11,059 nucleotides of DNA from IMG/VR virus record IMGVR_UViG_2690316115_000019; one strand, given 5' to 3'. The DNA is from a virus (Duplodnaviria > Heunggongvirae > Uroviricota > Caudoviricetes). Below the pieces are notes generated by a model that ran no database searches, had not been told where the DNA came from, and worked only from the letters and a program-made list of their open reading frames with translations. Made by a program: the position numbers and the translations under genes. Shown here piece after piece: positions 1 through 10,982 of the stretch (position 1 is the stretch's first letter; each line of letters starts with the position of its first letter).

Positions 1-69
1 ATTTTCAAGAACCGTTCTGACAGCTTCGGCTTTGAACTCTTTAGAGTAACGTTGGGTTTTTCTGCTCAT
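1..69 (-). CDS. IS3-family transposase OrfA, N-terminal fragment (partial; runs off window)
   Basis: Minus-strand ATG at 67-69 with AAGGAG 6 nt upstream. Translation MSRKTQRYSKEFKAEAVRTVLEN shows the SxEFKxEAV pattern of IS3-family OrfA helix-turn-helix proteins (recalled, resembles IS600-group OrfA). It is not on the ORF track because it is truncated by the window edge. Confidence 0.6.
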   Translation of the reverse strand, partial: MSRKTQRYSKEFKAEAVRTVLEN

Positions 70-133
70 TATTAGCTCCTTCTGATGCCATTCTATTTCA
101 GGAAGGAGTGTCCGTTAAACTCAGGCTACCTCA
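1..133 (-). mobile_element. Partial IS3-family insertion sequence; terminal inverted repeat ends at about 133 and the element continues beyond the window start
   Basis: Reverse complement of 101-133 reads TGAGGTAGCCTGAGTTTAACGGACACTCCTTCC, a TGA-initiated terminus typical of IS3-family inverted repeats. It lies about 65 nt upstream of an OrfA-like start preceded by AAGGAG. Only one end is in the window, so element identity and target duplication cannot be checked. Confidence 0.55.
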
Positions 134-642
134 TGCAGCTTAAGCTCCGGATACATGGCGTTAACTTCTGGCATTTTCATCAACGCTTCAACGATATGTC
201 CGTCGAATGTTGCCATGTCTTCCTGCAACAGTTCCTGTGCGCTAATAACCATATCAACGGTGATGTTTTCACATGTGTCGAACTTAACCATGACAGCGTT
301 CTGTACTTCAGGGGCCAGCTTGTCAAAAGTGACGTTCATCGGATAGGATTCAGTCTCAACCGGGACAAAAGAAGCAGACTCCTCATCCCAGCGGTTTTCC
401 TGCATATATTCAGCATCCCATGAATCGAGGGCAGGGCGGGGTATGCCAGGTTTATCCTCGCAGATAATAAATTTATAAGCGCAGTCCTGAGCAGCCGGAT
501 AATGTTCCAGGAATTGCCAGTGAAATTTTGCTCGAGCACGGCGTTCGTCGCCAGCTTCAATGGCTGTGGCTACAGCCACAGCGCCTTCTTCCCTTGTTGC
601 CAGTTCGTCAGGAATAGCGGCGCAAATAAAGACTTTACTCAT
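121..642 (-). CDS. Acidic hypothetical protein at the ydfE position downstream of dicB/ydfD; last 4 codons and stop lie inside the IS terminus, so the native C-terminus is probably replaced or truncated
   Basis: 173-aa ORF, same strand as dicB and ydfD, GAGG about 10 nt upstream of the ATG at 642. The ORF stop at 121-123 is within the IS inverted repeat (IS end about 133). No family recognised from sequence. Confidence 0.45.
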   Translation of the reverse strand: MSKVFICAAIPDELATREEGAVAVATAIEAGDERRARAKFHWQFLEHYPAAQDCAYKFIICEDKPGIPRPALDSWDAEYMQENRWDEESASFVPVETESYPMNVTFDKLAPEVQNAVMVKFDTCENITVDMVISAQELLQEDMATFDGHIVEALMKMPEVNAMYPELKLHEVA

Positions 643-735
643 TTTGTTTTAACCTCATGACAGATTTAAGGATGAACAAATCCCTGCCATTGCTGGCATA
701 TAAGAATGAAACCGGATATTTATTACGGAACTGTT

Positions 736-927
736 TTAAAGACCTGCCGGGATTTCGATATTATCCTGGTGAATAACTTTATCGACCGGGTAACAGTTAC
801 CGGGAATTTTCTGTTCGGTTGCTGCAGTCATACACTCCTGCATTGTCCTGTGAACACTGACTGCAATATCAACTGGCTCTCCGGAAACAAGAAAAACTGT
901 CAGAACAAGTGCAAATGCTGTATTCAT
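736..927 (-). CDS. ydfD: YdfD-like small protein (63 aa) with N-terminal hydrophobic/signal-like segment
   Basis: Internal ATG of ORF 736..981 with AGGA upstream. Its start overlaps the dicB stop in an ATGA arrangement (925-927 versus 924-926), suggesting translational coupling. N-terminus MNTAFALVLTVFLVSG is hydrophobic. Size and position match ydfD of the Qin dicB operon (recalled). Confidence 0.55.
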   Translation of the reverse strand: MNTAFALVLTVFLVSGEPVDIAVSVHRTMQECMTAATEQKIPGNCYPVDKVIHQDNIEIPAGL

Positions 928-1112
928 TGCCAGCATCCTTTTTGTATCGGACGTAAACGGGCCAGCATTGAAAGAATGCATATTTTATTTAATAACTCCC
1001 GTTCGTGTTTTCTCTTGTTAATGGCATCTTCAGTAAATACAGGGTTACTGATAGTGACACCAATTTCAAAACAACCTTCAGACGTATTAACGTTTGGTAA
1101 TAACGTTTCCAT
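924..1112 (-). CDS. dicB: DicB cell-division inhibitor (62 aa)
   Basis: Internal ATG at 1110-1112 of ORF 924..1217 with GAGGA 8 nt upstream. Protein METLLPNVNTSEGCFEIGVTISNPVFTEDAINKRKHERELLNKICILSMLARLRPIQKGCWQ closely matches my recollection of E. coli DicB (MKTLLPNVNTSEGCFEIGVTISNPVF...). It lies about 170 nt downstream of the DicF-like RNA, as in Qin. Confidence 0.75.
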   Translation of the reverse strand: METLLPNVNTSEGCFEIGVTISNPVFTEDAINKRKHERELLNKICILSMLARLRPIQKGCWQ

Positions 1113-1281
1113 TATCGCGTCCTCAACAATGAATTTTGTGATGCAGTGCCTGGTGCCTCCAGGTGACGTTAACCAGTTAACAATTAACGCCGGATACAGA
1201 GAATCCACCCATAACACTGTTTTTGGTTTTAACTGTTCCGCGTGCGCTTAGCCGCATTCACCGCATCACAAAATTCACTTT

Positions 1282-1339
1282 AAAAAGGGCGGCAGAGCAG
1301 TCACGGAGTAGAACTGATACCGCCAAAAGTCACCAGAAA
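1282..1339 (-). ncRNA. dicF: DicF-like small regulatory RNA with 3' intrinsic terminator
   Basis: Reverse complement of 1282-1339 is TTTCTGGTGACTTTTGGCGGTATCAGTTCTACTCCGTGACTGCTCTGCCGCCCTTTTT. This differs at about two positions from the DicF sequence as I recall it and ends in GCCGCCC plus a T-run. Position between a 72-aa gene and dicB matches the Qin dicB operon. Confidence 0.75.
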
Positions 1340-1680
1340 ATTGATAACAGAGGGCGTTGCAGCGGGGTTGTCACTTAAGCGTATGGTCAACCTGACAACC
1401 CGGTGTCCTCAACGGTGGAAGGAATAACCCCGCCATACTTACCGCCGCGCCATTTCGCGGAGTGCCACAACCGGAAGCGCACGGTCGACGAAAATTTAAC
1501 GACAGGTTATCTATGAACCAGCTACCTCGCCGTGCGCTTTCGCGTTATGGTCTGACTTTTCATGGAAATATCCTTTCAGTAAACTGTCAGTGCCGGATGC
1601 TCACCCGTGTCCGGCGCACGCACTCCACCTCACCCGTGGAGAACTCCTTAATTACCAACCTTAGCTTCGTTGGTTAGCTA

Positions 1681-1899
1681 TTAACGCGGGTATGTAATCA
1701 TTCTGGCAATGCTTAATGCCGCTGCTTTTTCCAGCCTGGTGATATCCTGCTCCAGAGCGGACAGATTTTCAGCCTGCTTAGCCCTGGCTTCATTGGCCCA
1801 TTTCAGGTCCTGCGCTGCCTTAATTTTCTGGTGCATCCACTCATAAAGTTCATCATCGGTATAGTCTGGCGCGATGATGACGGGTTCTCGTTTCTGCAT
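1681..1899 (-). CDS. Small charged, probably coiled-coil protein (72 aa); possible YdfC-like gene preceding DicF
   Basis: ATG at 1897-1899 with consensus AAGGAG 5 nt upstream. It is the same size as, and in the same position relative to DicF as, ydfC in Qin. Assignment is by size and position only, not sequence. Confidence 0.55.
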   Translation of the reverse strand: MQKREPVIIAPDYTDDELYEWMHQKIKAAQDLKWANEARAKQAENLSALEQDITRLEKAAALSIARMITYPR

Positions 1900-1991
1900 G
1901 TCGGCTCCTTGTGGTTAGCGTTGCCTGCTTTTAACCACGTCAGGCGAGGTGGTATCCTCTGAGGGGTCTGTTACTCGAGAGGAAATTGGTT

Positions 1992-2192
1992 ATGAATACA
2001 ATCAAGTTTTCTTGCCCAGAATGTGGCGGCGAAGTCTTTGACACATCCTTTAAACCGCATGGCTCTGACAGTTTCGCGGGAGCCATCTGCAAAAATTGTG
2101 GTCACCTTGTAACTGAAGATGAGTCCTCGCAGTTTGATGACGAAATCGTTGACAATATCTTCGGTGCACTCACCAGAGACTTTCTGAAGTAA
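1992..2192 (+). CDS. Small zinc-ribbon protein (two CxxC pairs: CPECGG...CKNCGH), acidic C-terminus
   Basis: ATG at 1992 preceded by GAGAGGAAA. CxxC-x24-CxxC arrangement. It is oriented opposite to the surrounding minus-strand operon and conflicts with minus ORF 1971..2327, so it is uncertain. Confidence 0.4.
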   Translation: MNTIKFSCPECGGEVFDTSFKPHGSDSFAGAICKNCGHLVTEDESSQFDDEIVDNIFGALTRDFLK

Positions 2193-2227
2193 AGGCGCAT
2201 ACCGCTTAGTTACCGCTCTGATAATTC

Positions 2228-2416
2228 TTACCTGTCCGGCAATGGCGCTGATATCAATATAAAGCGCCATCGCTGTTTCTTTGCTGATCCCTGGATGCCT
2301 TCCATTCTGATGTTTGACTTCGCCCACTGAGAAATCCTCTGTTTCCCCTTAACGCCGGGGTAGCGGAACAAAAAACCTGCTGCATAGTTAAACGTAATCC
2401 CCGCCGTCATGTTCAT
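2228..2416 (-). CDS. Possible small basic protein just downstream (minus strand) of the left operator-like region, at the ydfA/ydfB position; low confidence
   Basis: 62-aa ORF on the track. GAGG lies close to the first ATG and a second ATG follows at 2408-2410. No recognisable domain. Confidence 0.2.
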   Translation of the reverse strand: MNMTAGITFNYAAGFLFRYPGVKGKQRISQWAKSNIRMEGIQGSAKKQRWRFILISAPLPDR

Positions 2417-2506
2417 ACGCCTCAGGCTGGCTACTTAACCCCTGACCACTGCCGGGTAACTCGAAGTATTGCCCTGCGTTCTGTGGGGCGGGGTGGGTTT
2501 ATGGAT

Positions 2507-2563
2507 ACAATTTACAAATTAAAATTTAACCGGTCAACATGTTTATTATTAAATTTGTAATTG
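2507..2563. promoter_or_regulatory. Operator-like region (OL-like) with half-sites TTACAAAT (2512-2519) and ATTTGTAA (2553-2560), sharing a 14-bp exact match with the immunity-region operators
   Basis: TTAAATTTGTAATT at 2549-2562 is identical to 3791-3804. TTACAAAT at 2512-2519 is identical to 3765-3772. AATTTACAAATT (2509-2520) is itself near-palindromic. It lies upstream of higB and at the head of the leftward dicB-type operon. Confidence 0.45.
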
Positions 2564-2605
2564 CGAGCTGTTGCATCAGTCCCAAAATGGGACTACTATA
2601 CAGTT

Positions 2606-2908
2606 ATGAAGATTATCTCAGTTAAAACACTCAGGGATTTTTGGGCGGAGAATCCTGATGCAGAACAACCGCTAAGGGCATGGGTGGATGAGGCGGCAAA
2701 AGCTGACTGGAAAAGCCCAGCAGACATTAAGGCACAATACCGAACGGCCAGTATATTGAAAAACCGGCGCGTGGTATTCAACATAAAAGGTAATCATTAC
2801 CGTTTAATTGTTGCAATTGCGTATCAGCGAGGATGGGTATTTGTTAAATTCATCGGAAACCACAAGGAATACGATACTATTGATGCTGATACCATCGAAC
2901 TGGAGTAA
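2606..2908 (+). CDS. higB: HigB-family type II toxin (mRNA interferase, RelE/ParE superfamily)
   Basis: 100 aa from ATG 2606. C-terminal pattern FNIKGNHYRLIVAIAYQRGWVFVKFIGNHKEYD resembles E. coli HigB/YgjN (GN..R....V.FIGTHKEYD). It is followed 2 nt later by a HigA-like gene. No clear Shine-Dalgarno, so the start is uncertain (track ORF begins at a TTG at 2561). Confidence 0.75.
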   Translation: MKIISVKTLRDFWAENPDAEQPLRAWVDEAAKADWKSPADIKAQYRTASILKNRRVVFNIKGNHYRLIVAIAYQRGWVFVKFIGNHKEYDTIDADTIELE

Positions 2909-2910
2909 GC

Positions 2911-3270
2911 ATGAACATCAAACCTATTCGTACAGAGCAAGATTATGAAGCCGCGTTGCGTGCTGTTGAACCCATGTTCGACAATGAGCCCGAAATTGAC
3001 ACGCCTGAGGGGGATTTTTTTGAGGTGATGTGTTTGCTAATAGAGGAATATGAAAAAAAACATTATCCCATTGAGCCACCATCCCCAATTGAAGCTATAA
3101 GATTTCGCATGGAACAGCAGGGGCTGACTGTGAAAGATTTGGAACCCGCAATTGGGAAAAAAAATCGGGTTTATGAGGTGTTGAATGGTACCAGAAGCCT
3201 TACGTTACCAATGATTCGCCGTCTTCATAATCAATTTGGTATCCCCCTGGAAAGCCTGGTTGGATTATAA
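2911..3270 (+). CDS. higA: HigA-family antitoxin (XRE-type helix-turn-helix)
   Basis: 119 aa. C-terminal helix-turn-helix segment LTLPMIRRLHNQFGIPLESL resembles E. coli HigA/YgjM (LTLEHAKKLATRFGISPALF). Toxin-first gene order with a 2-nt gap is typical of higBA. Confidence 0.75.
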   Translation: MNIKPIRTEQDYEAALRAVEPMFDNEPEIDTPEGDFFEVMCLLIEEYEKKHYPIEPPSPIEAIRFRMEQQGLTVKDLEPAIGKKNRVYEVLNGTRSLTLPMIRRLHNQFGIPLESLVGL

Positions 3271-3286
3271 AATCTGCTAGTCATTT

Positions 3287-3335
3287 GCCTGATGCTCGTT
3301 CCAGAAAAGGAATGCATCAGGCAGTTTTGTTTTTC
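3287..3335 (+). terminator. Intrinsic terminator after higA; overlaps the 3' end of the convergent repressor gene
   Basis: 9-bp inverted repeat GCCTGATGC (3287-3295) / GCATCAGGC (3313-3321), followed by AGTTTTGTTTTTCT (3322-3335). Confidence 0.55.
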
Positions 3336-3709
3336 TGCCGCAGTAACTCTTCAAGTTTCCGTTTATAGAAATCGCGTTTTTGCTCCATATCACGAATGAT
3401 CTGCTCTGCGTCGCTTTGAGGTAACTCATCTAAAAGCGATATGATTTTTCGTTGTTGTTCTGTAAGTTGCGGTTGGTTGTCATTACTGGATACAGCCATT
3501 TTATCGCCGAGAGTTTCTTCTTCCATAAAGAACCAATGGACGGGATGTTGTGAGAGCTCTGCTAATTTTTCCAGTTTATCCATTCTTGGCATCACGCCTT
3601 TCAACCAACCTTGCACGGATTGGGGTTTTACACCAAGACGTCTTCCCAGCTCTGACTGGTTTATATTCAATTCCTGCAACACCTGCTGAAGGCGTTTTAC
3701 AAAGATCAT
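3317..3709 (-). CDS. DicA/CI-like prophage repressor (N-terminal helix-turn-helix, C-terminal dimerisation-like region)
   Basis: ATG at 3707-3709 with GAGGGG upstream (track ORF starts two GTG codons earlier). Segment NQSELGRRLGVKPQSVQGWLKG is a helix-turn-helix. The C-terminal LTEQQRKIISLLDELPQSDAEQ...KLEELLRQK aligns with the DicA C-terminus as recalled. It is divergent from a Cro-like gene. Confidence 0.75.
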   Translation of the reverse strand: MIFVKRLQQVLQELNINQSELGRRLGVKPQSVQGWLKGVMPRMDKLEKLAELSQHPVHWFFMEEETLGDKMAVSSNDNQPQLTEQQRKIISLLDELPQSDAEQIIRDMEQKRDFYKRKLEELLRQKNKTA

Positions 3710-3763
3710 CACCACCCCTCGTAAACTAGTTCCGCGATCCTACAGAAAAAATTGATAAGTGGC

Positions 3764-3804
3764 ATTACAAATAGAAGTTGAAATTTAAATTTAAATTTGT
3801 AATT
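3764..3804. promoter_or_regulatory. Immunity-region operator/promoter block (OR-like) between the divergent repressor and cro-like genes
   Basis: ATTACAAAT (3764-3772) and ATTTGTAAT (3795-3803) are inverted copies. Tandem AAATTT repeats lie at 3781-3798. A candidate rightward promoter has -35 TTGAAA (3778-3783) and -10 AATTAT (3801-3806) overlapping the right site. GGAGGG precedes the ATG at 3836. Confidence 0.55.
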
Positions 3805-3835
3805 ATCGGTGTCATCGTAAAGTTCGGAGGGAAAC

Positions 3836-4096
3836 ATGCAAAAAAGTACTCAAGTGAAAATCCTGTCAATAATGAGCCAATCAGAATTAGGGCGTCGTCT
3901 TGGTAAAACACCGCAAACCATAAGTGGGTGGTTTAAAAAACGAGTGCCAGCGGAGGAGGTTATACCAGCATGTGAGGCGCTTGACTGGGGAGTAACTCCG
4001 CATGAATTGCGCCCTGATAAATACCCTAATCCAACCGATGGTTTACCTGTTGAGTATCAGGCTAACGCACAAGCAGCGGCGGGAGTTGATTCATGA
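3836..4096 (+). CDS. Cro-like helix-turn-helix regulator of the YdaS/DicC family
   Basis: 86 aa with a GGAGGG RBS. SQSELGRRLGKTPQTISGWFKK...ACEALDWGVTPHELRPD resembles Rac YdaS (recalled). Confidence 0.7.
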   Translation: MQKSTQVKILSIMSQSELGRRLGKTPQTISGWFKKRVPAEEVIPACEALDWGVTPHELRPDKYPNPTDGLPVEYQANAQAAAGVDS

Positions 4097-4518
4097 AAAT
4101 CAAGCATGAACACATCCGCATGGCGATGAATGTCTGGGCGCATCCGGACGGCGAAAAAGTGCCGGCTGCGAAAATTACCAAAGCGTATTTCGAGCTGGGA
4201 ATGACGTTCCCGGAACTGTATGACGACAGCCATCCGGAAGCCCTGGCCCGTAATACCCAGAAAATTTTCCGTTGGCTGGATAAAGACACCCCTGATGCTG
4301 TTGAAAAAATGCAGGCTCTGTTACCGGCGATCGAAAAGGCGATGCCGCCTTTGCTGGTGGCCCGTATGCGCAGCCACAGTTCTGAATATTACCGTGAGAT
4401 CGTCGAACGGAGGGATCGGCTGGTGAAGGATGTCGATGATTTTGTTGCGTCAGCGGTTGTTTTGTATGACCAGATGAATCGCGGCGGCCCGGCAGGGAAT
4501 GCTGTGGTGATGCACTAA
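4093..4518 (+). CDS. YdaT-like protein (CII-like regulator/toxin family of Rac-type prophages)
   Basis: 141 aa. Its start overlaps the upstream stop (ATGA at 4093-4096). N-terminus MKIKHEHI matches my recollection of YdaT. GGGAG RBS. Confidence 0.6.
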   Translation: MKIKHEHIRMAMNVWAHPDGEKVPAAKITKAYFELGMTFPELYDDSHPEALARNTQKIFRWLDKDTPDAVEKMQALLPAIEKAMPPLLVARMRSHSSEYYREIVERRDRLVKDVDDFVASAVVLYDQMNRGGPAGNAVVMH

Positions 4519-4540
4519 AAGCACGGTGTTCGGGGGTTTT

Positions 4541-5503
4541 ATGAGCAGCAAGCTTCATGGTCTTGTCTGGGAAGGGTGCGCCTTCACCGGCATGATCTTA
4601 TCCAGGGTGGCGGTTATGGCCCGTCTTGCAGACTACAGCAATGACGAGGGCGTGTCATGGCCTGCCATTGAAACTATCCGGCGTCAGATCGGTGCAAGAA
4701 GTGAATCCACAGTGAAATCGGCTATTGCAGAACTGGCGAAAGAGGGCTGGCTGACGAAGGAAGAGCGTAAGGTCGGTGGGCGTAATGTAAGCAATATCTA
4801 TCGGCTTAATGTGGAAAAACTCGAAGCAGCTGCGGCGGCGGCGCGTGAGTCATATAAACCGAAAAGAAAAATTAGCCCGGCAAAAAATGACCCGTTAACA
4901 GTTGACCCGTCAAATATTGACCCCTCAACGGTTGACCCGTCAAATTTTGATGGATCAACTGTTGATAAAAAACTGCCGATTAGGGGGCCGATGATTGACC
5001 CCGATCCGTCAGTATTAAAACCTGATCCGTCAGATAAAAGATCTTCTTGTCCGGACGCTTCGCAACCGGACCCGCAGACGGCTGAACAGGATTTTTTAAC
5101 CCGACACCCTGACGCGGTTGTGTTCAGTGCGAAAAAACGCCAGTGGGGAAGTCAGGAAGATTTGGTGTGCGCACAGTGGATCTGGGGACGAATCGTGAGT
5201 CTTTACGAGCAGGCGGCCAGCTATGATGGCGAGATCACTAGACCGAAAGAACCCAACTGGACAGCATGGGCCAATGACGTTCGCACAATGCGGATGCTGG
5301 ATGGCAGAACTCACAGACAAATTTGTGAAATGTTTGGGCGTCTCCAGCGGGATTCGTTCTGGGTAAAAAACATCATGAGTCCGGCAAAACTCCGGGAAAA
5401 ATGGGATGAACTGGTTATCCGCCTGGGGCGTTCGCCTGCGCAGCGTTGCGTGAATCACATTTCTGAACCGGACACTGAAATACCGCCGGGATTCAGGGGG
5501 TGA
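4541..5503 (+). CDS. Phage replication initiator: N-terminal winged-helix/helix-turn-helix domain, repeat-rich linker, C-terminal DnaT-like domain
   Basis: ATG at 4541 (track ORF from GTG at 4526). The C-terminus ...VNHISEPDTEIPPGFRG matches the E. coli DnaT C-terminus as recalled (...SEPDSQIPPGFRG). The N-terminus has a helix-turn-helix-like segment (WPAIETIRRQIGARSESTVKSAIAELAKEGWL). It is followed immediately by a DnaC-like gene. Confidence 0.75.
   Translation: MSSKLHGLVWEGCAFTGMILSRVAVMARLADYSNDEGVSWPAIETIRRQIGARSESTVKSAIAELAKEGWLTKEERKVGGRNVSNIYRLNVEKLEAAAAAARESYKPKRKISPAKNDPLTVDPSNIDPSTVDPSNFDGSTVDKKLPIRGPMIDPDPSVLKPDPSDKRSSCPDASQPDPQTAEQDFLTRHPDAVVFSAKKRQWGSQEDLVCAQWIWGRIVSLYEQAASYDGEITRPKEPNWTAWANDVRTMRMLDGRTHRQICEMFGRLQRDSFWVKNIMSPAKLREKWDELVIRLGRSPAQRCVNHISEPDTEIPPGFRG
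4887..5033. repeat. Iteron-like 15-bp direct repeats containing the palindrome TTGACCCGTCAA, embedded in the replication initiator gene (candidate origin)
   Basis: GTTGACCCGTCAAAT at 4901-4915 and again at 4931-4945. Degenerate copies: ATTGACCCCTCAACG (4916-4930), TGACCCGTTAACA (4888-4900), GATTGACCCCGATCCGTCAG (4992-5011), CCTGATCCGTCAG (5021-5033). A-rich spacers lie between them. The repeats encode the VDPSN(I/F) peptide repeats. Confidence 0.55.
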
Positions 5504-5509
5504 CGTGTC

Positions 5510-6256
5510 ATGAAAAACATTGCGGCAGTTGGGGTTCTTGAACGTATTCGCAGACTTGCACCACAGGGGTCGGTTCCACCGTACCGGACGGTGGAGGAGT
5601 GGCGGGAATGGCAACTTGCTGAAGGACGAAAACGCAGCGAGGAGATTAACCGCCAGAATCGCCAGTTGCGGGTGGAAAAAATCCTGAATCGTTCGGGCAT
5701 CCAGCCTCTGCACAGCAAATGCTCGTTTGCAAATTATCAGGTGCAGAACGACGGGCAAAAATACGCGCTGAGCCAGGCCAAATCCATAGCTGACGAACTG
5801 ATGACCGGGTGCACGAATTTTGTGTTCAGCGGTAAAACCGGCACCGGGAAAAATCACCTTGCAGCGGCGATGGGCAACCGGCTGATGGTGAAGGGGAGAA
5901 GCGTGATTATCGTCACCGTGTCTGACGTCATGAGCGTGTTGCATGACAGCTACGACAACGGCAAATCCGGGGAAAAATTTTTACAGGAGCTTTGCGGGGT
6001 TGATTTGCTGGTCCTGGATGAAATAGGCGTTCAGCGGGAGACGAAAAACGAGCAGGTGGTATTGCACCAGATAATTGATCGCCGGACAGCATCACTGTGC
6101 AGTGTCGGGATGTTAACAAACCTGAATCATGCCGCAATGAGCACGCTTCTTGGTGAGAGGATTATGGACCGCATGACCATGAACGGTGGTCGATGGGTGA
6201 CGTTTAACTGGGATAGCTGGCGTCCAAATGTCAGCAATATGAGGGTTGTGAAGTAA
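5510..6256 (+). CDS. DnaC-like replicative helicase loader (AAA+ ATPase)
   Basis: 248 aa. Walker A is GKTGTGKNHLAAA and Walker B is LLVLDEIG. It is alignable along its length to E. coli DnaC as recalled (NRSGIQPLH, FANYQV, MLTNLN, LGERIMDRM, FNWDSWR). Confidence 0.85.
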   Translation: MKNIAAVGVLERIRRLAPQGSVPPYRTVEEWREWQLAEGRKRSEEINRQNRQLRVEKILNRSGIQPLHSKCSFANYQVQNDGQKYALSQAKSIADELMTGCTNFVFSGKTGTGKNHLAAAMGNRLMVKGRSVIIVTVSDVMSVLHDSYDNGKSGEKFLQELCGVDLLVLDEIGVQRETKNEQVVLHQIIDRRTASLCSVGMLTNLNHAAMSTLLGERIMDRMTMNGGRWVTFNWDSWRPNVSNMRVVK

Positions 6257-6277
6257 TTTTGTCCGGAGGAAATTTTA

Positions 6278-7048
6278 ATGGAAACCGTATCTGACGCACT
6301 GAAAGCACTGAAAAAAGCCTCTTCACATGTGGTGGCAGCTCGCCTTGGAATCAGTCGTGAAGAGGCTGTCAACGAGCTGTGGGAACTCAAAAGAAAAGGC
6401 GTCGTTGATAAAACTGGTCACACCTGGTTTCTGGCTGGCGAAGGTGAATCCCGGGTAACCGAAGAGCGGCCAGTAAAATCTGAAGCACAGGATATGCTGA
6501 CCGGGGAGGTCGAACAAAAAGTTACCGCAGACATGATGATTGAGTTTATCGGTCAGGATGGGGCTAAAACGTGTGAGGAACTGGCGGGTAAGTTCGGTGT
6601 CAGTACTCGCAAGGTTGCTTCCACGCTGGCGGTGGTAACCGCAACGGGGCGGCTGGCACGCGTTAATCAGAGCGGTAAATTTTGTTACTGCATGCCGGGC
6701 GATAATTTACCAGCAGAGTCGAAAGCCGCGCTGGTAACGGAAAATGATGGTAAGGCCTTTCCTCAGCCAGCAGGTGCTGCGTTACCAGTCCGGGAAGCCG
6801 CAACACAGGAAGAAATTAAAACAGAAACTGTGGCGGACATTGTGCAGCCGTTGCTATCGTTTACCGAAACGCAAGCAGATGAGCTGATTTTTCCGTCCCT
6901 GCGCAGGGCAAACCTGGCGCTGCGCAGGGCGAAAAGTGATGTTCAGAAGTGGGAGCGAATCTGCGCCGCGCTGCGGGAGCTGAACAAGCACCGGGATATT
7001 GTTCGACAGATTACTGATTCTTCCCGCCGTGTTGTATCGGAAAAGTGA
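6278..7048 (+). CDS. Hypothetical protein at the ydaW position (two repeated winged-helix-like segments); function unknown
   Basis: 256 aa with a GGAGGAAA RBS. The internal duplication-like segments (VAARLGISREEAVNELWELKRKG and TCEELAGKFGVSTRKVASTLAVVTATG) are my reading only. Confidence 0.55.
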   Translation: METVSDALKALKKASSHVVAARLGISREEAVNELWELKRKGVVDKTGHTWFLAGEGESRVTEERPVKSEAQDMLTGEVEQKVTADMMIEFIGQDGAKTCEELAGKFGVSTRKVASTLAVVTATGRLARVNQSGKFCYCMPGDNLPAESKAALVTENDGKAFPQPAGAALPVREAATQEEIKTETVADIVQPLLSFTETQADELIFPSLRRANLALRRAKSDVQKWERICAALRELNKHRDIVRQITDSSRRVVSEK

Positions 7049-7063
7049 TTGCCGAAGGCGCTT

Positions 7064-7489
7064 ATGGCAAAAGTATTTACACAAGAAGAGCGAGAAAAAA
7101 TTAAAGGGCAGGTTGTTGAGCTAGTACGCCGGAGTGGGCGCGAGACGTTACGGCAACTGGAAGCCAGGACAGGTGCGACAAGATATCTGATGAGCGTTCT
7201 TGCCAGAGAGCTGGTTGCCAGTGGTGATGTATATCACTCTGGCTATGGGTTGTTCCCGTCAGAACAGGCGCGTAAGGACTGGCAAAACGCCCGCAAAAAA
7301 CTCTCGAGGGCAAAGGTGAAGAAACCTGTTGTGGTTGATCCGGGCCTTATCTGGACATTACCCGACGGAGAAATACACCGCTACGACAGGCGTATGAACA
7401 TAATCTGTCGCGAGTGCCGGAAGAGCGAAGCTATGCAGCGTGTACTGGCATTTTATCAAGGAAATGTTAGATATTTTAGACGTTACTAG
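7064..7489 (+). CDS. Protein with Ren-like C-terminal region
   Basis: ATG at 7064 with GAAGG upstream (track ORF starts at a TTG at 7049). The C-terminal ICRECRKSEAMQRVLAFY resembles lambda Ren (KECRQSAAMKRVLAVY, recalled). Position after the replication genes matches ren. Confidence 0.5.
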   Translation: MAKVFTQEEREKIKGQVVELVRRSGRETLRQLEARTGATRYLMSVLARELVASGDVYHSGYGLFPSEQARKDWQNARKKLSRAKVKKPVVVDPGLIWTLPDGEIHRYDRRMNIICRECRKSEAMQRVLAFYQGNVRYFRRY

Positions 7490-7642
7490 ATTAAAGAGCA
7501 TTAGTTCAGATGTGAATTGACATTTTCATGGCGCAGGGTAGAGCCAGCGTGGTTGTCCGCTTTGCGTCAAAACCAGATATTACCAGATTTAGACATATAT
7601 TCCCGATAGCCCTGCTCTGATGCTACACTCTGTGCTATTTTC

Positions 7643-8329
7643 ATGACCCCAATAAAAATATTTATGACTATTGCTGATTTCAAACGGCCTAAATTGGAGC
7701 TTCCAAACGGGGCAAACAAACTACTACTGCACTCTTGCTGTGCTCCATGTTCCGGTGAAGTGATGGAGGCGCTTCAGGCCTCGGGAATCGACTACACCAT
7801 CTTTTTCTACAACCCGAACATTCATCCTCAGAAAGAGTATTTAATTCGTAAGGATGAAAATATTCGCTTTGCTGAACAACACGGCGTGCCGTTTATCGAT
7901 GCTGATTACGACACCGACAACTGGTTTGAACGTGCCAAAGGAATGGAATGGGAGCCTGAGAGGGGGATCCGTTGTACCATGTGTTTTGACATGCGTTTTG
8001 AGCGGACAGCGTTGTACGCTGCTGAAAATGGTTTCAGTGTGATCAGTAGTTCACTGGGCATTTCACGCTGGAAAAATATGCAGCAGGTTAACGAGTGTGG
8101 GCGGCGAGCTGTTGCGCATTATCCGGGTATGGTGTACTGGGATTATAACTGGCGCAAGCAGGGCGGCTCGTCCCGTATGATTGAAATCAGCAAGCGCGAA
8201 AAATTCTATCAGCAGGAATATTGTGGCTGTGTGTATTCTCTGCGCGATACCAATCTACACCGCAAATCTCAGGGACGCCCTCTTATCAAAATTGGCCAAC
8301 TCCACTACGGAAAAGAAGAGAAGGAGTGA
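7643..8329 (+). CDS. QueH-like (DUF208) protein, putative Fe-S epoxyqueuosine reductase family
   Basis: Motifs [11 protein letters not shown] near the N-terminus, CTMCFD mid-protein and [10 protein letters not shown] near the C-terminus fit DUF208/QueH as I recall it. The start could be ATG 7643 or 7664; neither has a good RBS. Confidence 0.6.
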
Positions 8330-8399
8330 TTTTATGGATCACCTTTCTGATTGATTTCATATTGGCGAGGTGACGTGAGTTAAGTAGAATTGCTGCGGG

Positions 8400-8424
8400 T
8401 GCCTGAGGCTGTCTGCCTCAGGCA
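8400..8424. repeat. Perfect 10-bp inverted repeat (TGCCTGAGGC ... GCCTCAGGCA) with 5-nt loop, between the QueH-like and methyltransferase genes; no T-tract
   Basis: 8400-8409 and 8415-8424 are exact reverse complements. No U-run follows on either strand, so it is not a canonical intrinsic terminator. Confidence 0.5.
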
Positions 8425-8507
8425 TGAACACCAAAAGGCAGATAGAGAAAGCCCCAGTTAACATTACGCGTCCTGTAAGACGCTCAACATTAATCTGAGG
8501 CATATGG

Positions 8508-9632
8508 ATGCGGATGAAAGAATTAAATAAATTCAGAGTGATAGACCTCTTTTGTGGGGCAGGTGGATTATCTTATGGTTTTCTTCATGGAGAGATGTCT
8601 GACTACTTTGAAAGTATCCTTGCTATTGATAATAATGCTGCAGCTATAAATACCTACAATGCCAATTTTGGTTTGCATGGAGTTCAGGCAAATATTGAGG
8701 AGTGGGCATCCAGCAATACTGTTCCTGAGGCTGATGTGGTCATAGGTGGCCCCCCGTGTCAGGGATTCAGTTTATTGAATAAGAATCGTTATGGTGATCA
8801 CCGAAGAGCATTGTGGGAGCCTTATATGGATGTCATTGAGCGTTCAAGGGCTTGTATGTTCGTCATGGAAAATGTCCCCGGATTGCTGATAAGCGATGAG
8901 TTTGCGGACATTACGTTTAGAGCGAAATCCATGGGCTTTATTCTGCTTAATCCAATGGTGTTGAATACTGCTGACTATGGAGTACCTCAGACAAGAAAAC
9001 GAACGATAGCAATCGGTATCAAACGAGAACTCTTCGATGTGCATAGTATTCCGGCGTTCCCGCCAGCACCAACGCATCGTTCCCCTGATAAGGATGTCGC
9101 TTTGCCTGAATGGGTCTGTACGCGTGATGCAATTGGTGACTTACCTGCTCCTGTTGGAACTGATATTCGTAATGAACTTCCTCCGCTGAACTTACATTTT
9201 GGGCGTAATCCCACTCCTGTTTCTCTGGAGCGATATAAAGCGGTTCCACCAGGAGGTAACCGTTTCGATTTACAGAAAAAAAGACCTGATATAACCCCGG
9301 CGTGCTGGCTAAAAAAGAAATCTGGAGGGACCGATTTGTTTGGACGTCTGTGGTGGGACAAACCTTCAGTAACGATTCGTACTGAGTTTTTCAAACCGGA
9401 GAAAGGGCGATATTTACATCCGGAAGAGGATCGGCCAATAACTCATCGTGAGGCAGCGAGATTAATGTCTTTTCCTGATAATTTCATTTTTACCGGTTCA
9501 AAAACTGAGATTGCAAAGCAGATCGGGAATGCTGTTCCACCGCTATTTGCGGCAAAAATCGCACAATATGTGTATGGAGTTTTGCAGGGACGGTATAAGA
9601 ATAACATCAGTAAGAATAGTCAAGCAGCCTGA
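8508..9632 (+). CDS. DNA (cytosine-5)-methyltransferase
   Basis: Motif I DLFCGAGGLSYGF, motif IV GGPPCQGFS, motif VI ENVPGL, motif X QIGNAVPP. GAGG RBS 8 nt before ATG 8508. Confidence 0.9.
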   Translation: MRMKELNKFRVIDLFCGAGGLSYGFLHGEMSDYFESILAIDNNAAAINTYNANFGLHGVQANIEEWASSNTVPEADVVIGGPPCQGFSLLNKNRYGDHRRALWEPYMDVIERSRACMFVMENVPGLLISDEFADITFRAKSMGFILLNPMVLNTADYGVPQTRKRTIAIGIKRELFDVHSIPAFPPAPTHRSPDKDVALPEWVCTRDAIGDLPAPVGTDIRNELPPLNLHFGRNPTPVSLERYKAVPPGGNRFDLQKKRPDITPACWLKKKSGGTDLFGRLWWDKPSVTIRTEFFKPEKGRYLHPEEDRPITHREAARLMSFPDNFIFTGSKTEIAKQIGNAVPPLFAAKIAQYVYGVLQGRYKNNISKNSQAA

Positions 9633-9645
9633 AGGAAATCCAGAA

Positions 9646-10524
9646 ATGAATGGAGATTTGGTTGACAGCATAGTTGGTTTTGCTGAAGCCAGAAAGGAGT
9701 TTCATGCCCAATTGTTACTGAATACGCTCACAATTAATACTGCCGGAGTTGTTAGTAACGCAGATAGCAGTAACAAAAACAGTAAAGCTATAGCAAGAGA
9801 AATTGCTCGCTTCTTGCAGGCTGAAACGATTGGTGAACGTGTTGCAGGGCAAACATCTGGTAATCAGTTTGAGAGTATCTGCGCAGAGTTTATAGAAAAA
9901 ACCTTTTTTAAACTCAGCCACTTACGCCCTGGAAAATGGAATGTACATCAGGTTTCTGGTAGAAACAGATTAGAGATAGCTAAATATGAACAATATGCCC
10001 ATCTTATAGCATTGGATAGTGCTGCAAAAAGTAATCCTCAGCTAGCTGCTGCACTGGGGAGTGATTATACGATTTCACCAGATATTATTGTTGAAAGAGA
10101 ACCTGAATGTGATCAAGTTATCAACAGTCCTGAATTACTGGTGGATGATTCTGTTACCCGCATGTCAGCTCTCAGGAGTTCGAATGGTGGGAAACCAATA
10201 TTACACGCAAGTATTTCCTGCAAATGGACAATAAGAAGCGACCGGGCCCAGAATGCTCGTTCTGAGGCATTAAATCTTATTCGCAACCGTAAGGGAAATC
10301 TCCCTCATGTAATGGTTGTTACTGCTGAGCCTACTCCAAGTCGTCTGGCGTCTATTGCTCTTGGTACTGGTGATATAGATTGCGTGTATCATTTTGCGCT
10401 TTATGAACTTATATCAGCAGTTGAAATACTGGGGCTCAGCGATGCAGCTGACATGCTTTCCGTGATGGTTAATGGTAAAAGATTAAAGGATATTTCTGAT
10501 CTTCCCTTGGATCTTGCAGTCTGA
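9646..10524 (+). CDS. Putative type II restriction endonuclease, Cfr10I/NgoMIV/Bse634I-like active-site arrangement
   Basis: ATG 9646 with GAAGGAAA RBS, 13 nt after the methyltransferase stop. The spacing of putative catalytic residues is PD (SPDIIV), then S-x-K (ISCKW) 45-47 residues later, then E exactly 14 residues after the K (RSEALN), as in Cfr10I-family enzymes (recalled). Gene is AT-rich. Confidence 0.55.
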   Translation: MNGDLVDSIVGFAEARKEFHAQLLLNTLTINTAGVVSNADSSNKNSKAIAREIARFLQAETIGERVAGQTSGNQFESICAEFIEKTFFKLSHLRPGKWNVHQVSGRNRLEIAKYEQYAHLIALDSAAKSNPQLAAALGSDYTISPDIIVEREPECDQVINSPELLVDDSVTRMSALRSSNGGKPILHASISCKWTIRSDRAQNARSEALNLIRNRKGNLPHVMVVTAEPTPSRLASIALGTGDIDCVYHFALYELISAVEILGLSDAADMLSVMVNGKRLKDISDLPLDLAV

Positions 10525-10549
10525 CATCTCTACGTAAATAGAGTCTGTC
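10523..10549 (+). terminator. Imperfect hairpin at the endonuclease stop (possible weak terminator)
   Basis: GACATCTCTA (10523-10532) / TAGAGTCTGTC (10539-10549), followed by ATATTTTAA. Confidence 0.3.
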
Positions 10550-10596
10550 ATATTTTAACTGTGATGGCACGTCATTGACTTCAGTACATTTTTACT

Positions 10597-10622
10597 AACC
10601 CGCTTCGCGGGTTTTGTTTTTT
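10597..10622 (+). terminator. Rho-independent terminator closing the cargo island
   Basis: AACCCGC (10597-10603), loop TTC, GCGGGTT (10607-10613), then TTTTGTTTTTT. Confidence 0.7.
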
Positions 10623-10694
10623 CCTGGCATTCTGGTTTACAATCCACACGCCAGCCTGAACAACTGGCACCTGCTGCGCCAGCAGAGACAACCG

Positions 10695-10982
10695 ATGGCG
10701 CACAATACCAAACACCACAATTCTGATGCCGACCCTGCCAGCAGACACGGACGGCGCTCTCACGCATTCAAATATGACTGGTACCAGCATGACCAATGCA
10801 CTGAAGAACAGGCCGAGTGGCTGATTCAGAATTACCGCAGACGTGGATACCAGTTTCAGAAAGGCCTCAATCCTGACTTCCGACACTGGATAATTTCCGT
10901 CAGGCTCCCTTATTCCGAACGCCCGCCGCGTCCGTCCCGCACATATGTAAGCGTCGTCTCAGCACCGTCTGGCAGATCCTGA
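10695..10982 (+). CDS. Hypothetical basic protein (95 aa), unknown function
   Basis: ATG at 10695 within ORF 10614..10982, whose first codons lie inside the terminator. No strong RBS and no recognised family. Confidence 0.35.
   Translation: MAHNTKHHNSDADPASRHGRRSHAFKYDWYQHDQCTEEQAEWLIQNYRRRGYQFQKGLNPDFRHWIISVRLPYSERPPRPSRTYVSVVSAPSGRS

Follow-up and report, generated by a model that had tools for sequence, protein, structure and literature searches.

The stretch of DNA analysed here, hereafter the window, is the 11,059-nucleotide (nt) Caudoviricetes record IMGVR_UViG_2690316115_000019 of IMG/VR, and the element in question is a DicF small RNA (sRNA) with the dicB operon that surrounds it. 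The original prediction, made from the letters of the window, had read positions 736-1899 as a dicB operon of the type found in the Qin prophage of Escherichia coli K-12, carrying a copy of DicF and joined to a right arm of the type found in the Rac prophage. These limits correspond exactly to the ydfD stop and the ydfC start, and the following features lie between them (lengths of proteins in amino acids, aa).

736-927, minus strand: ydfD, DUF1482 lysis protein of 63 aa (Pfam, 92 bits; 96.8% aa identity to K-12)
924-1112, minus strand: dicB, cell-division inhibitor of 62 aa (Pfam DicB PF05358, 127.4 bits for a cut-off of 27, 62 of 62 positions)
1287-1339, minus strand: DicF sRNA (RF00039), allele G12U and U29C
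1340-1680, minus strand: spacer between ydfC and dicF, which forms the 3' untranslated region (UTR) of ydfC and the precursor of DicF; about 97-98% identity to K-12, one 1-nt insertion or deletion (indel)
1681-1899, minus strand: ydfC, 72 aa (95.8% aa identity to K-12 YdfC)

When the whole window was scanned with Rfam cmscan, a single match to DicF (RF00039) was obtained, at 1287-1338 on the minus strand, with a score of 71.5 bits (E = 1.5e-14) for a gathering score of 48 bits, and this match spans the full covariance model (positions 1-52 of 52). As a comparator, the K-12 Qin interval 1648780-1650010 of NC_000913 was aligned to the reverse complement of window 700-1960. The 53-nt DicF is identical to that of K-12 at 51 of 53 positions, and the estimate of "about two" differing positions made from the sequence alone was accurate, since the alignment shows exactly two differences, G12U and U29C. 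In the minimum-energy fold of the RNA (-15.3 kcal/mol) nt 16-52 form pairs and nt 1-15 stay single-stranded; the terminator hairpin (nt 16-52) is intact, with a run of five U residues, CCCUUUUU, directly after it, and the flanks of DicF and its terminator are 97-98% identical to K-12. DicF is located between ydfC and dicB on the strand of both genes, and no other Rfam match was found in the spacer that separates it from ydfC.

The Pfam scores of dicB and ydfD bear out that both genes were rightly recognised. DicB differs from its K-12 counterpart at 7 of 62 residues (88.7% aa identity), the exact window protein is named DicB by NCBI, and its stop codon overlaps the ydfD start (ATGA). At the DNA level, ydfC, DicF, dicB and ydfD are 96-98% identical to K-12 Qin. 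On every feature that could be tested, the element clearly reads as a member of the DicF family and as a Qin-type RNA, and the flagged stretch is confirmed as a genuine and very common E. coli prophage module, which would block division of the host once the prophage is switched on.

Window 600-2000 is matched in 4762 of the 5426 complete E. coli genomes, with a median of 2 places per genome and a maximum of 10, and the exact DicB, YdfD and YdfC proteins are each present on at least 1000 contigs. The exact DicF allele (66-nt query, 100% identity) was found in 90 complete-genome records, about 2% of the complete E. coli genomes, and many of the carriers listed are ST131-like. Around DicF, at least 30 genomes, O25b:H4-ST131 among them, agree with the window at 100% identity over a region of 161 nt, and the complete genomes having this region at 100% identity usually have two DicF loci; a scan of species-representative genomes gave six DicF loci, too few for a survey of the species. 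These observations fit the literature, in which dicF or dicBF is described in multiple prophage contexts with up to four copies in enterohaemorrhagic E. coli (EHEC), so that the statement of the original prediction about homologues in several prophages of pathogenic E. coli is documented (PMC5069750, PMC7873438). In EHEC O157:H7 the multiple dicF copies are accompanied by portions of the dicBF locus within various lambdoid prophage contexts (PMC5069750, PMC7873438), whereas the window shows no context of Shiga toxin (Stx) or locus of enterocyte effacement (LEE).

In the RefSeq/PGAP complete genomes, no annotated feature lies under the DicF matches (hits H61-H150), so that extra copies are easily overlooked in standard annotation. 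The module itself is ordinary, because many sequenced genomes already contain this exact version of it, and the arrangement does not appear unusual, the allele and every module being already known from public genomes by sequence comparison. The value of the result lies mainly in a correct annotation, DicF, DicB and YdfD being prophage products already studied in depth, which arrest division of the host or lyse it. DicF core sequences were also encountered in contigs of two metagenome-assembled genomes, of Veillonella parvula (L010) and of Collinsella sp. (L011), assigned to Gram-positive and Negativicutes lineages, and these are probably contigs of E. coli prophages that were binned wrongly.

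DicF represses ftsZ through pairing of its 3' region with the ribosome-binding site of this gene, and xylR through its 5' end, Hfq being required; in K-12, point mutations in the 5' seed abolish the regulation of xylR (PMC5069750). Whether the two substitutions fall in the ftsZ-pairing region, a point raised together with the prediction, receives a divided answer in silico, U29C lying inside this region and G12U outside it, in the xylR seed. The predicted duplex of DicF with ftsZ (-29 to +25) has an energy of -38.5 kcal/mol for K-12 vs -36.9 kcal/mol for the window allele, and that of DicF nt 24-53 with ftsZ -29 to -1 has -27.9 vs -26.6 kcal/mol, these values ignoring Hfq and the accessibility of the target site. 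U29C belongs to the segment paired to the Shine-Dalgarno sequence and spacer of ftsZ (DicF 26-36 against CGGAGAGAAAC), where a shift of register by one nucleotide accommodates it and yields a G-C pair, and its effect on ftsZ pairing is predicted to be nearly neutral. G12U, for its part, is not in the portion of the RNA that counts for ftsZ. Between DicF nt 5-17 and xylR +8 to +20 the predicted duplex is perfect over 13 bp (-20.3 kcal/mol); at its centre G12 pairs with C+13 of xylR, and with G12U the energy becomes about -15 kcal/mol, a predicted weakening of the xylR pairing by about 5 kcal/mol.

Variation at these sites was followed in 125 DicF copies, taken from IMG/VR and six representative genomes. 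Among them, DicF varies most at position 12, with G12A in 14 copies and G12U in 4, and U29C was seen once, within the same double allele; together with its occurrence in complete genomes, G12U/U29C is to be regarded as a known minority allele at the sequence level. One explanation of this allele would be that of a functional variant with a shifted set of targets, in which ftsZ is kept and xylR, along with other targets of the 5' seed, is lost or weakened. The drop in predicted xylR energy, the polymorphism of position 12 and the loss of xylR regulation in the K-12 seed mutants are all in agreement with it; however, the argument is drawn from energy predictions only, 5 + 7 bp of pairing are left with G12U, and Hfq may compensate, so that we consider this explanation unlikely, if the least unlikely of those competing with the reading developed below. 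A little more doubtful still is the broader proposal that natural DicF alleles may differ in the genes they regulate, G12U/U29C keeping the repression of ftsZ and losing that of xylR, a loss proposed because G12 is the centre of the 13-bp xylR seed. If it were true, the prophage-borne copies of one sRNA would diversify in their metabolic targets while the cell-division target is kept, and the polymorphism at position 12 offers a cheap and testable hypothesis on the divergence of targets between DicF alleles.

How the module would be expressed depends on what precedes it. Window 134-1899 is collinear with K-12 Qin, with 97.6% DNA identity over 1767 bp, and ydfC, DicF, dicB, ydfD and ydfE have the same order and strand as in the K-12 dicBF operon (ydfABC-dicF-dicB-ydfD-ydfE), with the same DicF terminator. 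The homology reaches its limit at the ydfC start codon, the alignment breakpoint being just upstream of the ATG, at the ribosome-binding site of ydfC. K-12 Qin has ydfA, ydfB, dicA, dicC and the dicB promoter with its operators, whereas in the Qin alignment ydfA, ydfB and the dicA/dicC control region are absent upstream of ydfC in the window, which has a zinc-ribbon gene and a 160-nt leader in the place of the Qin operon head. In addition, no DUF1391 gene is present, and the window repressor has 22% identity to DicA. The label of a Qin-type operon is valid, on these comparisons, from ydfC through ydfE and fails for the operon head. The head together with the immunity region is another module, consisting of the zinc-ribbon gene, the conserved leader, HigBA and a DicA-like repressor, and the immunity region (HigBA, repressor and Cro) matches neither Qin nor Rac. 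The features concerned are these (HTH, helix-turn-helix).

1986-2192, plus strand: zinc-ribbon gene of the ECs_2282 family (NCBIfam NF047912, 57.2 bits for a cut-off of 37), on the opposite strand inside the leftward transcription unit
2342-2499, minus strand: 5' leader of the leftward early operon, conserved, apparently non-coding, about 160 nt
2537-2509, minus strand: PL-like promoter (TTGACC, 17 nt, TAAATT; promoter scan), in an AT-rich control region
2606-2908, plus strand: higB (Pfam HigB_toxin, 113 bits)
2911-3270, plus strand: higA (Pfam HTH_3)
3317-3715, minus strand: prophage repressor, 132 aa, HTH, distantly DicA-like (Pfam HTH_3; PHROG transcriptional repressors)

An operator-like 14-mer, TTAAATTTGTAATT, is found at 2549-2562 with an inverted copy at 2510-2523, the two flanking the PL-like promoter, and again at 3791-3804 in the intergenic region between the repressor and cro; three matches are thus observed vs 0.18 expected. 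The repressor matches the NCBIfam DicA model with E = 2.3e-13, below the cut-off of the model, and its gene is intact.

The leader lies directly downstream of the PL-type promoter, and about 45-60 loci that carry DicF, with promoters and operators unrelated to each other, retain it with 82-92% identity. Copies of it are present in K-12 Rac (L004, 2466-2615; 87% identity) and in two further loci (L002, 8092-8258; L134, 8528-8687), and in K-12 Qin only its last 28 nt remain. In most loci its end is the ribosome-binding site of ydfA/ydaF. Indels in the leader break every reading frame, it has no Rfam match, and phage records leave it without annotation. Within it lies a hairpin whose loop varies and which has one covarying pair (A-U to G-C); GG and a run of five to six U residues follow, and this hairpin with its U-run could act as an attenuator. 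The leader as a structured RNA is not supported, its fold being no better than that of shuffled sequence (z = +1.14); the RNAalifold covariation term is only -0.38, with double changes at three pairs.

Two open reading frames (ORFs) on the minus strand were considered as the first gene of the operon and rejected. The first, of 99 aa (within 1971-2327), matches phrog_21318 (E = 3e-66) and is wholly antisense to the zinc-ribbon gene, which is annotated at the same place in complete genomes. It was taken as a shadow ORF because all four variable sites among the homologues are wobble positions of the plus-strand zinc-ribbon gene, weak evidence given n = 4, and the phrog_21318 family is probably built on shadow ORFs. 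The second, of 62 aa (2228-2416), has a frame that is not conserved because of 1-nt indels in a T-run.

At its other end, the leftward operon runs into an insertion sequence (IS).

1-131, minus strand: end of IS600 (IS3 family), left boundary, truncating the exonuclease gene
121-642, minus strand: stub of a ydfE-type (RecE-like) exonuclease, N-terminal 173 aa, last gene of the leftward operon

More than 3000 complete genomes have annotated IS600 transposase loci to which window 1-131 is 100% identical, and prophage homology begins at position 132. The stub has 97.1% aa identity to residues 1-173 of K-12 ydfE and corresponds to positions 1-172 of 823 of the phrog_2082 exonuclease, intact homologues having 823-835 aa, so that IS600 cuts the gene at about codon 170. 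The exonuclease gene is also cut by an IS in K-12 Qin, where ydfE is disrupted by IS2; the two cuts are parallel and the elements differ. Whatever is located further left, such as the integrase and the attachment site, falls outside the window.

From the identity, anatomy, conservation and in-silico pairing described above, we infer how transcription, processing and regulation would proceed in this strain. Very probably, the region represents the distal end of a leftward early (PL-type) operon in a lambdoid E. coli prophage and works in the following manner. In the lysogen, the DicA-like repressor (3317-3715) would bind the 14-bp operators at PL and in the repressor/cro region, keeping the operon silent. 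Upon derepression, leftward transcription would start from the PL-like promoter near 2500 and proceed through the leader, antisense across the zinc-ribbon gene and into ydfC. The DicF of K-12 is a product of the ydfC 3' UTR, early Rho-independent termination and cleavage by RNase E giving the 53-nt form, and a 72-nt DicF results from the processing of a long transcript by RNase III (PMC9438474). As is known from K-12, read-through transcripts processed by RNase III would express dicB and ydfD. DicF with Hfq would pair through nt 24-53 with ftsZ -29 to -1 and block the synthesis of FtsZ, DicB would inhibit Z-ring formation, and YdfD would act as a lysis protein.

Several points weigh against this scheme. 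The promoter is called on a 9 of 12 match to the consensus, and such matches number 8 vs 6.1 expected in shuffled sequence. About 600 nt, which hold both an opposite-strand gene and the hairpin and U-run of the leader, have to be traversed by leftward transcription, and either feature could attenuate it. The duplex energies leave aside Hfq and the accessibility of the target site, and the IS600 insertion marks this arm of the prophage as decaying.

Some of these points would also be expected if the operon were a silent relic in a defective, IS-disrupted prophage, giving no useful transcription and leaving DicF and DicB without effect on the host. The truncation of the exonuclease gene by IS600, with nothing in the window to its left, the intact repressor gene, the possible hairpin and U-run of the leader, and the promoter scan, which detected no consensus promoter in the 86-bp gap upstream of ydfC, are all compatible with such a state. 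On the other hand, all four products are full length, the terminator and flanks of DicF have kept 97-98% identity, at least 30 genomes have this allele within an identical stretch of 161 nt, and the Qin prophage of K-12 is defective as well and yet its DicF is functional when expressed (PMC5069750). We therefore regard a silent relic as improbable. That the RNA would be a Rac-type, KilS-like counterpart and not DicF proper is already refuted by three results, since the Rac kilS region, although it has the DicF terminator scaffold and the downstream 100 nt, reaches a sub-threshold 39.1 bits with the DicF model, whereas the window RNA scores 71.5 bits, agrees with K-12 DicF at 51 of 53 positions including the 5' seed and loop, and has dicB, not kilR, as its downstream gene. 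A DicF-dicB module at the end of a repressible leftward early operon is the reading that we retain; the observation reported in the original prediction is confirmed and its interpretation is partly supported, as is also apparent from the right arm of the window.

3836-4096, plus strand: Cro-like protein of the YdaS family (Pfam YdaS_toxin, 34.6 bits for a cut-off of 30)
4093-4518, plus strand: CII-like protein of the YdaT family (Pfam YdaT_toxin, 40.9 bits for a cut-off of 21; phrog_163, CII-like)
4526-5503, plus strand: O-like initiator (phrog_391, O-like, E = 4e-115; Pfam HTH_36)
5510-6256, plus strand: DnaC/YdaV-like loader (NCBIfam PRK12377, 506 bits; 80% identity to YdaV, 48% to DnaC)
6278-7048, plus strand: YdaW-like DUF1627 protein (Pfam DUF1627; 53% identity to YdaW)
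7049-7489, plus strand: DUF977 protein (Pfam DUF977)
7643-8329: homologue of QueH (epoxyqueuosine reductase), between the replication genes and the hok/restriction-modification locus (Pfam, 221 bits)

The right arm has the gene order of K-12 Rac (racR-ydaS-ydaT-ydaU-ydaV-ydaW), shares with it the YdaT family, and contains the DnaC-like loader and the gene in the position of ydaW that had been predicted. For YdaS and YdaT the evidence is mixed: both Pfam families are matched, but the YdaT-family protein is only 31% identical to its Rac counterpart, and no match to Rac YdaS was obtained for the Cro-like protein at E <= 1e-3. The repressor next to these genes is not RacR, and the initiator of Rac is YdaU (DUF1376) whereas that of the window is an O-like HTH protein. 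The label of a Rac-type right arm is valid, judging from these identities, for gene order, YdaV and YdaW and fails for the initiator and the immunity genes.

The fusion of the initiator to DnaT, also proposed, has to be abandoned. Residues 306-325 of the initiator align to DnaT 160-179 (70% identity, E = 1e-7), the match to YdaU is confined to its last 19 residues, and no DnaT family match was obtained for it in Pfam or NCBIfam; what is shared is a C-terminal tail of 20 residues and not a DnaT domain. This C-terminus (5443-5503, ...SEPDTEIPPGFRG) resembles both the C-terminus of the host DnaT and the tail of Rac YdaU over about 20 residues, and the next gene encodes a DnaC-type loader in all three cases. 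It may be a short, portable loader-binding tail common to otherwise unrelated proteins.

Rac also resembles the window on its leftward side, where, besides the leader, an sRNA stands upstream of a small FtsZ-inhibiting protein, the inhibitor being KilR in Rac and DicB in the window. The annotated sRNA of Rac, KilS (L004, 1406-1503), occupies upstream of kilR the position that DicF has upstream of dicB. Its terminator arms and about 100 nt of its downstream flank are shared with DicF, and its 5' part and loop differ; the two RNAs appear to be homologues that have diverged, their seeds swapped.

As predicted, the prophage is a mosaic, its blocks matching different sequenced prophages. Window 132-2499 is 98.3% identical to strain DA33137, window 1900-4100 is 100% identical to strain Z1322HEC0009 and window 4087-10946 is 99.0% identical to strain fS25a, each block being 98-100% identical to prophages of complete genomes. 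No complete E. coli genome covers at least 80% of the window in one place, which is the normal state for lambdoid mosaics. The yccA-integrated prophage of Z1322HEC0009 (NZ_CP148570) has the same order of ydfD, dicB, ydfC, zinc-ribbon gene, higBA, repressor and cro, which continues as in the window with ydaT, initiator, loader, DUF1627 and DUF977, and that of fS25a (NZ_CM176579), likewise integrated at yccA, shares the QueH gene and the methyltransferase/NgoMIV cassette; the whole combination of blocks found in the window, with the IS600 insertion, is not found among complete genomes. The exact initiator is also present in two prophages of E. coli O25b:H4 (CP015085), both without the immunity region, the restriction-modification cassette and the IS600 of the window.

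The higBA module separates the PL control region from the repressor gene, with which it is convergent, and the exact window proteins are named HigB and HigA in NCBI records. The 14-mer at 2549-2562 is found immediately upstream of higB, so that some control sequences might be common to higBA and PL. Among complete genomes, 129 carry the module with 99.8-100% identity, Shiga toxin-producing E. coli (STEC) O26 and O103 among them.

Downstream of the replication genes, the QueH homologue is also found in related prophages integrated at ompW and yccA. Window 8372-8577 has an Rfam match to "sok" (61 bits for a threshold of 59), and about 130 nt of it (8372-8505) form a hokD-type leader that is about 93-95% identical to prophage hokD loci. 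From about 8505 onward, a C5 DNA methyltransferase (8508/8514-9632) and an endonuclease of the NgoMIV family take the place of the hok ORF. Since the hokD-type leader runs straight into the methyltransferase, insertion of the restriction-modification cassette seems to have taken place precisely at the start of hok, so that the methylase gene is preceded by the promoter and leader of hok. The junction between the hok leader and the methyltransferase is also present in other genomes, such as fS25a.

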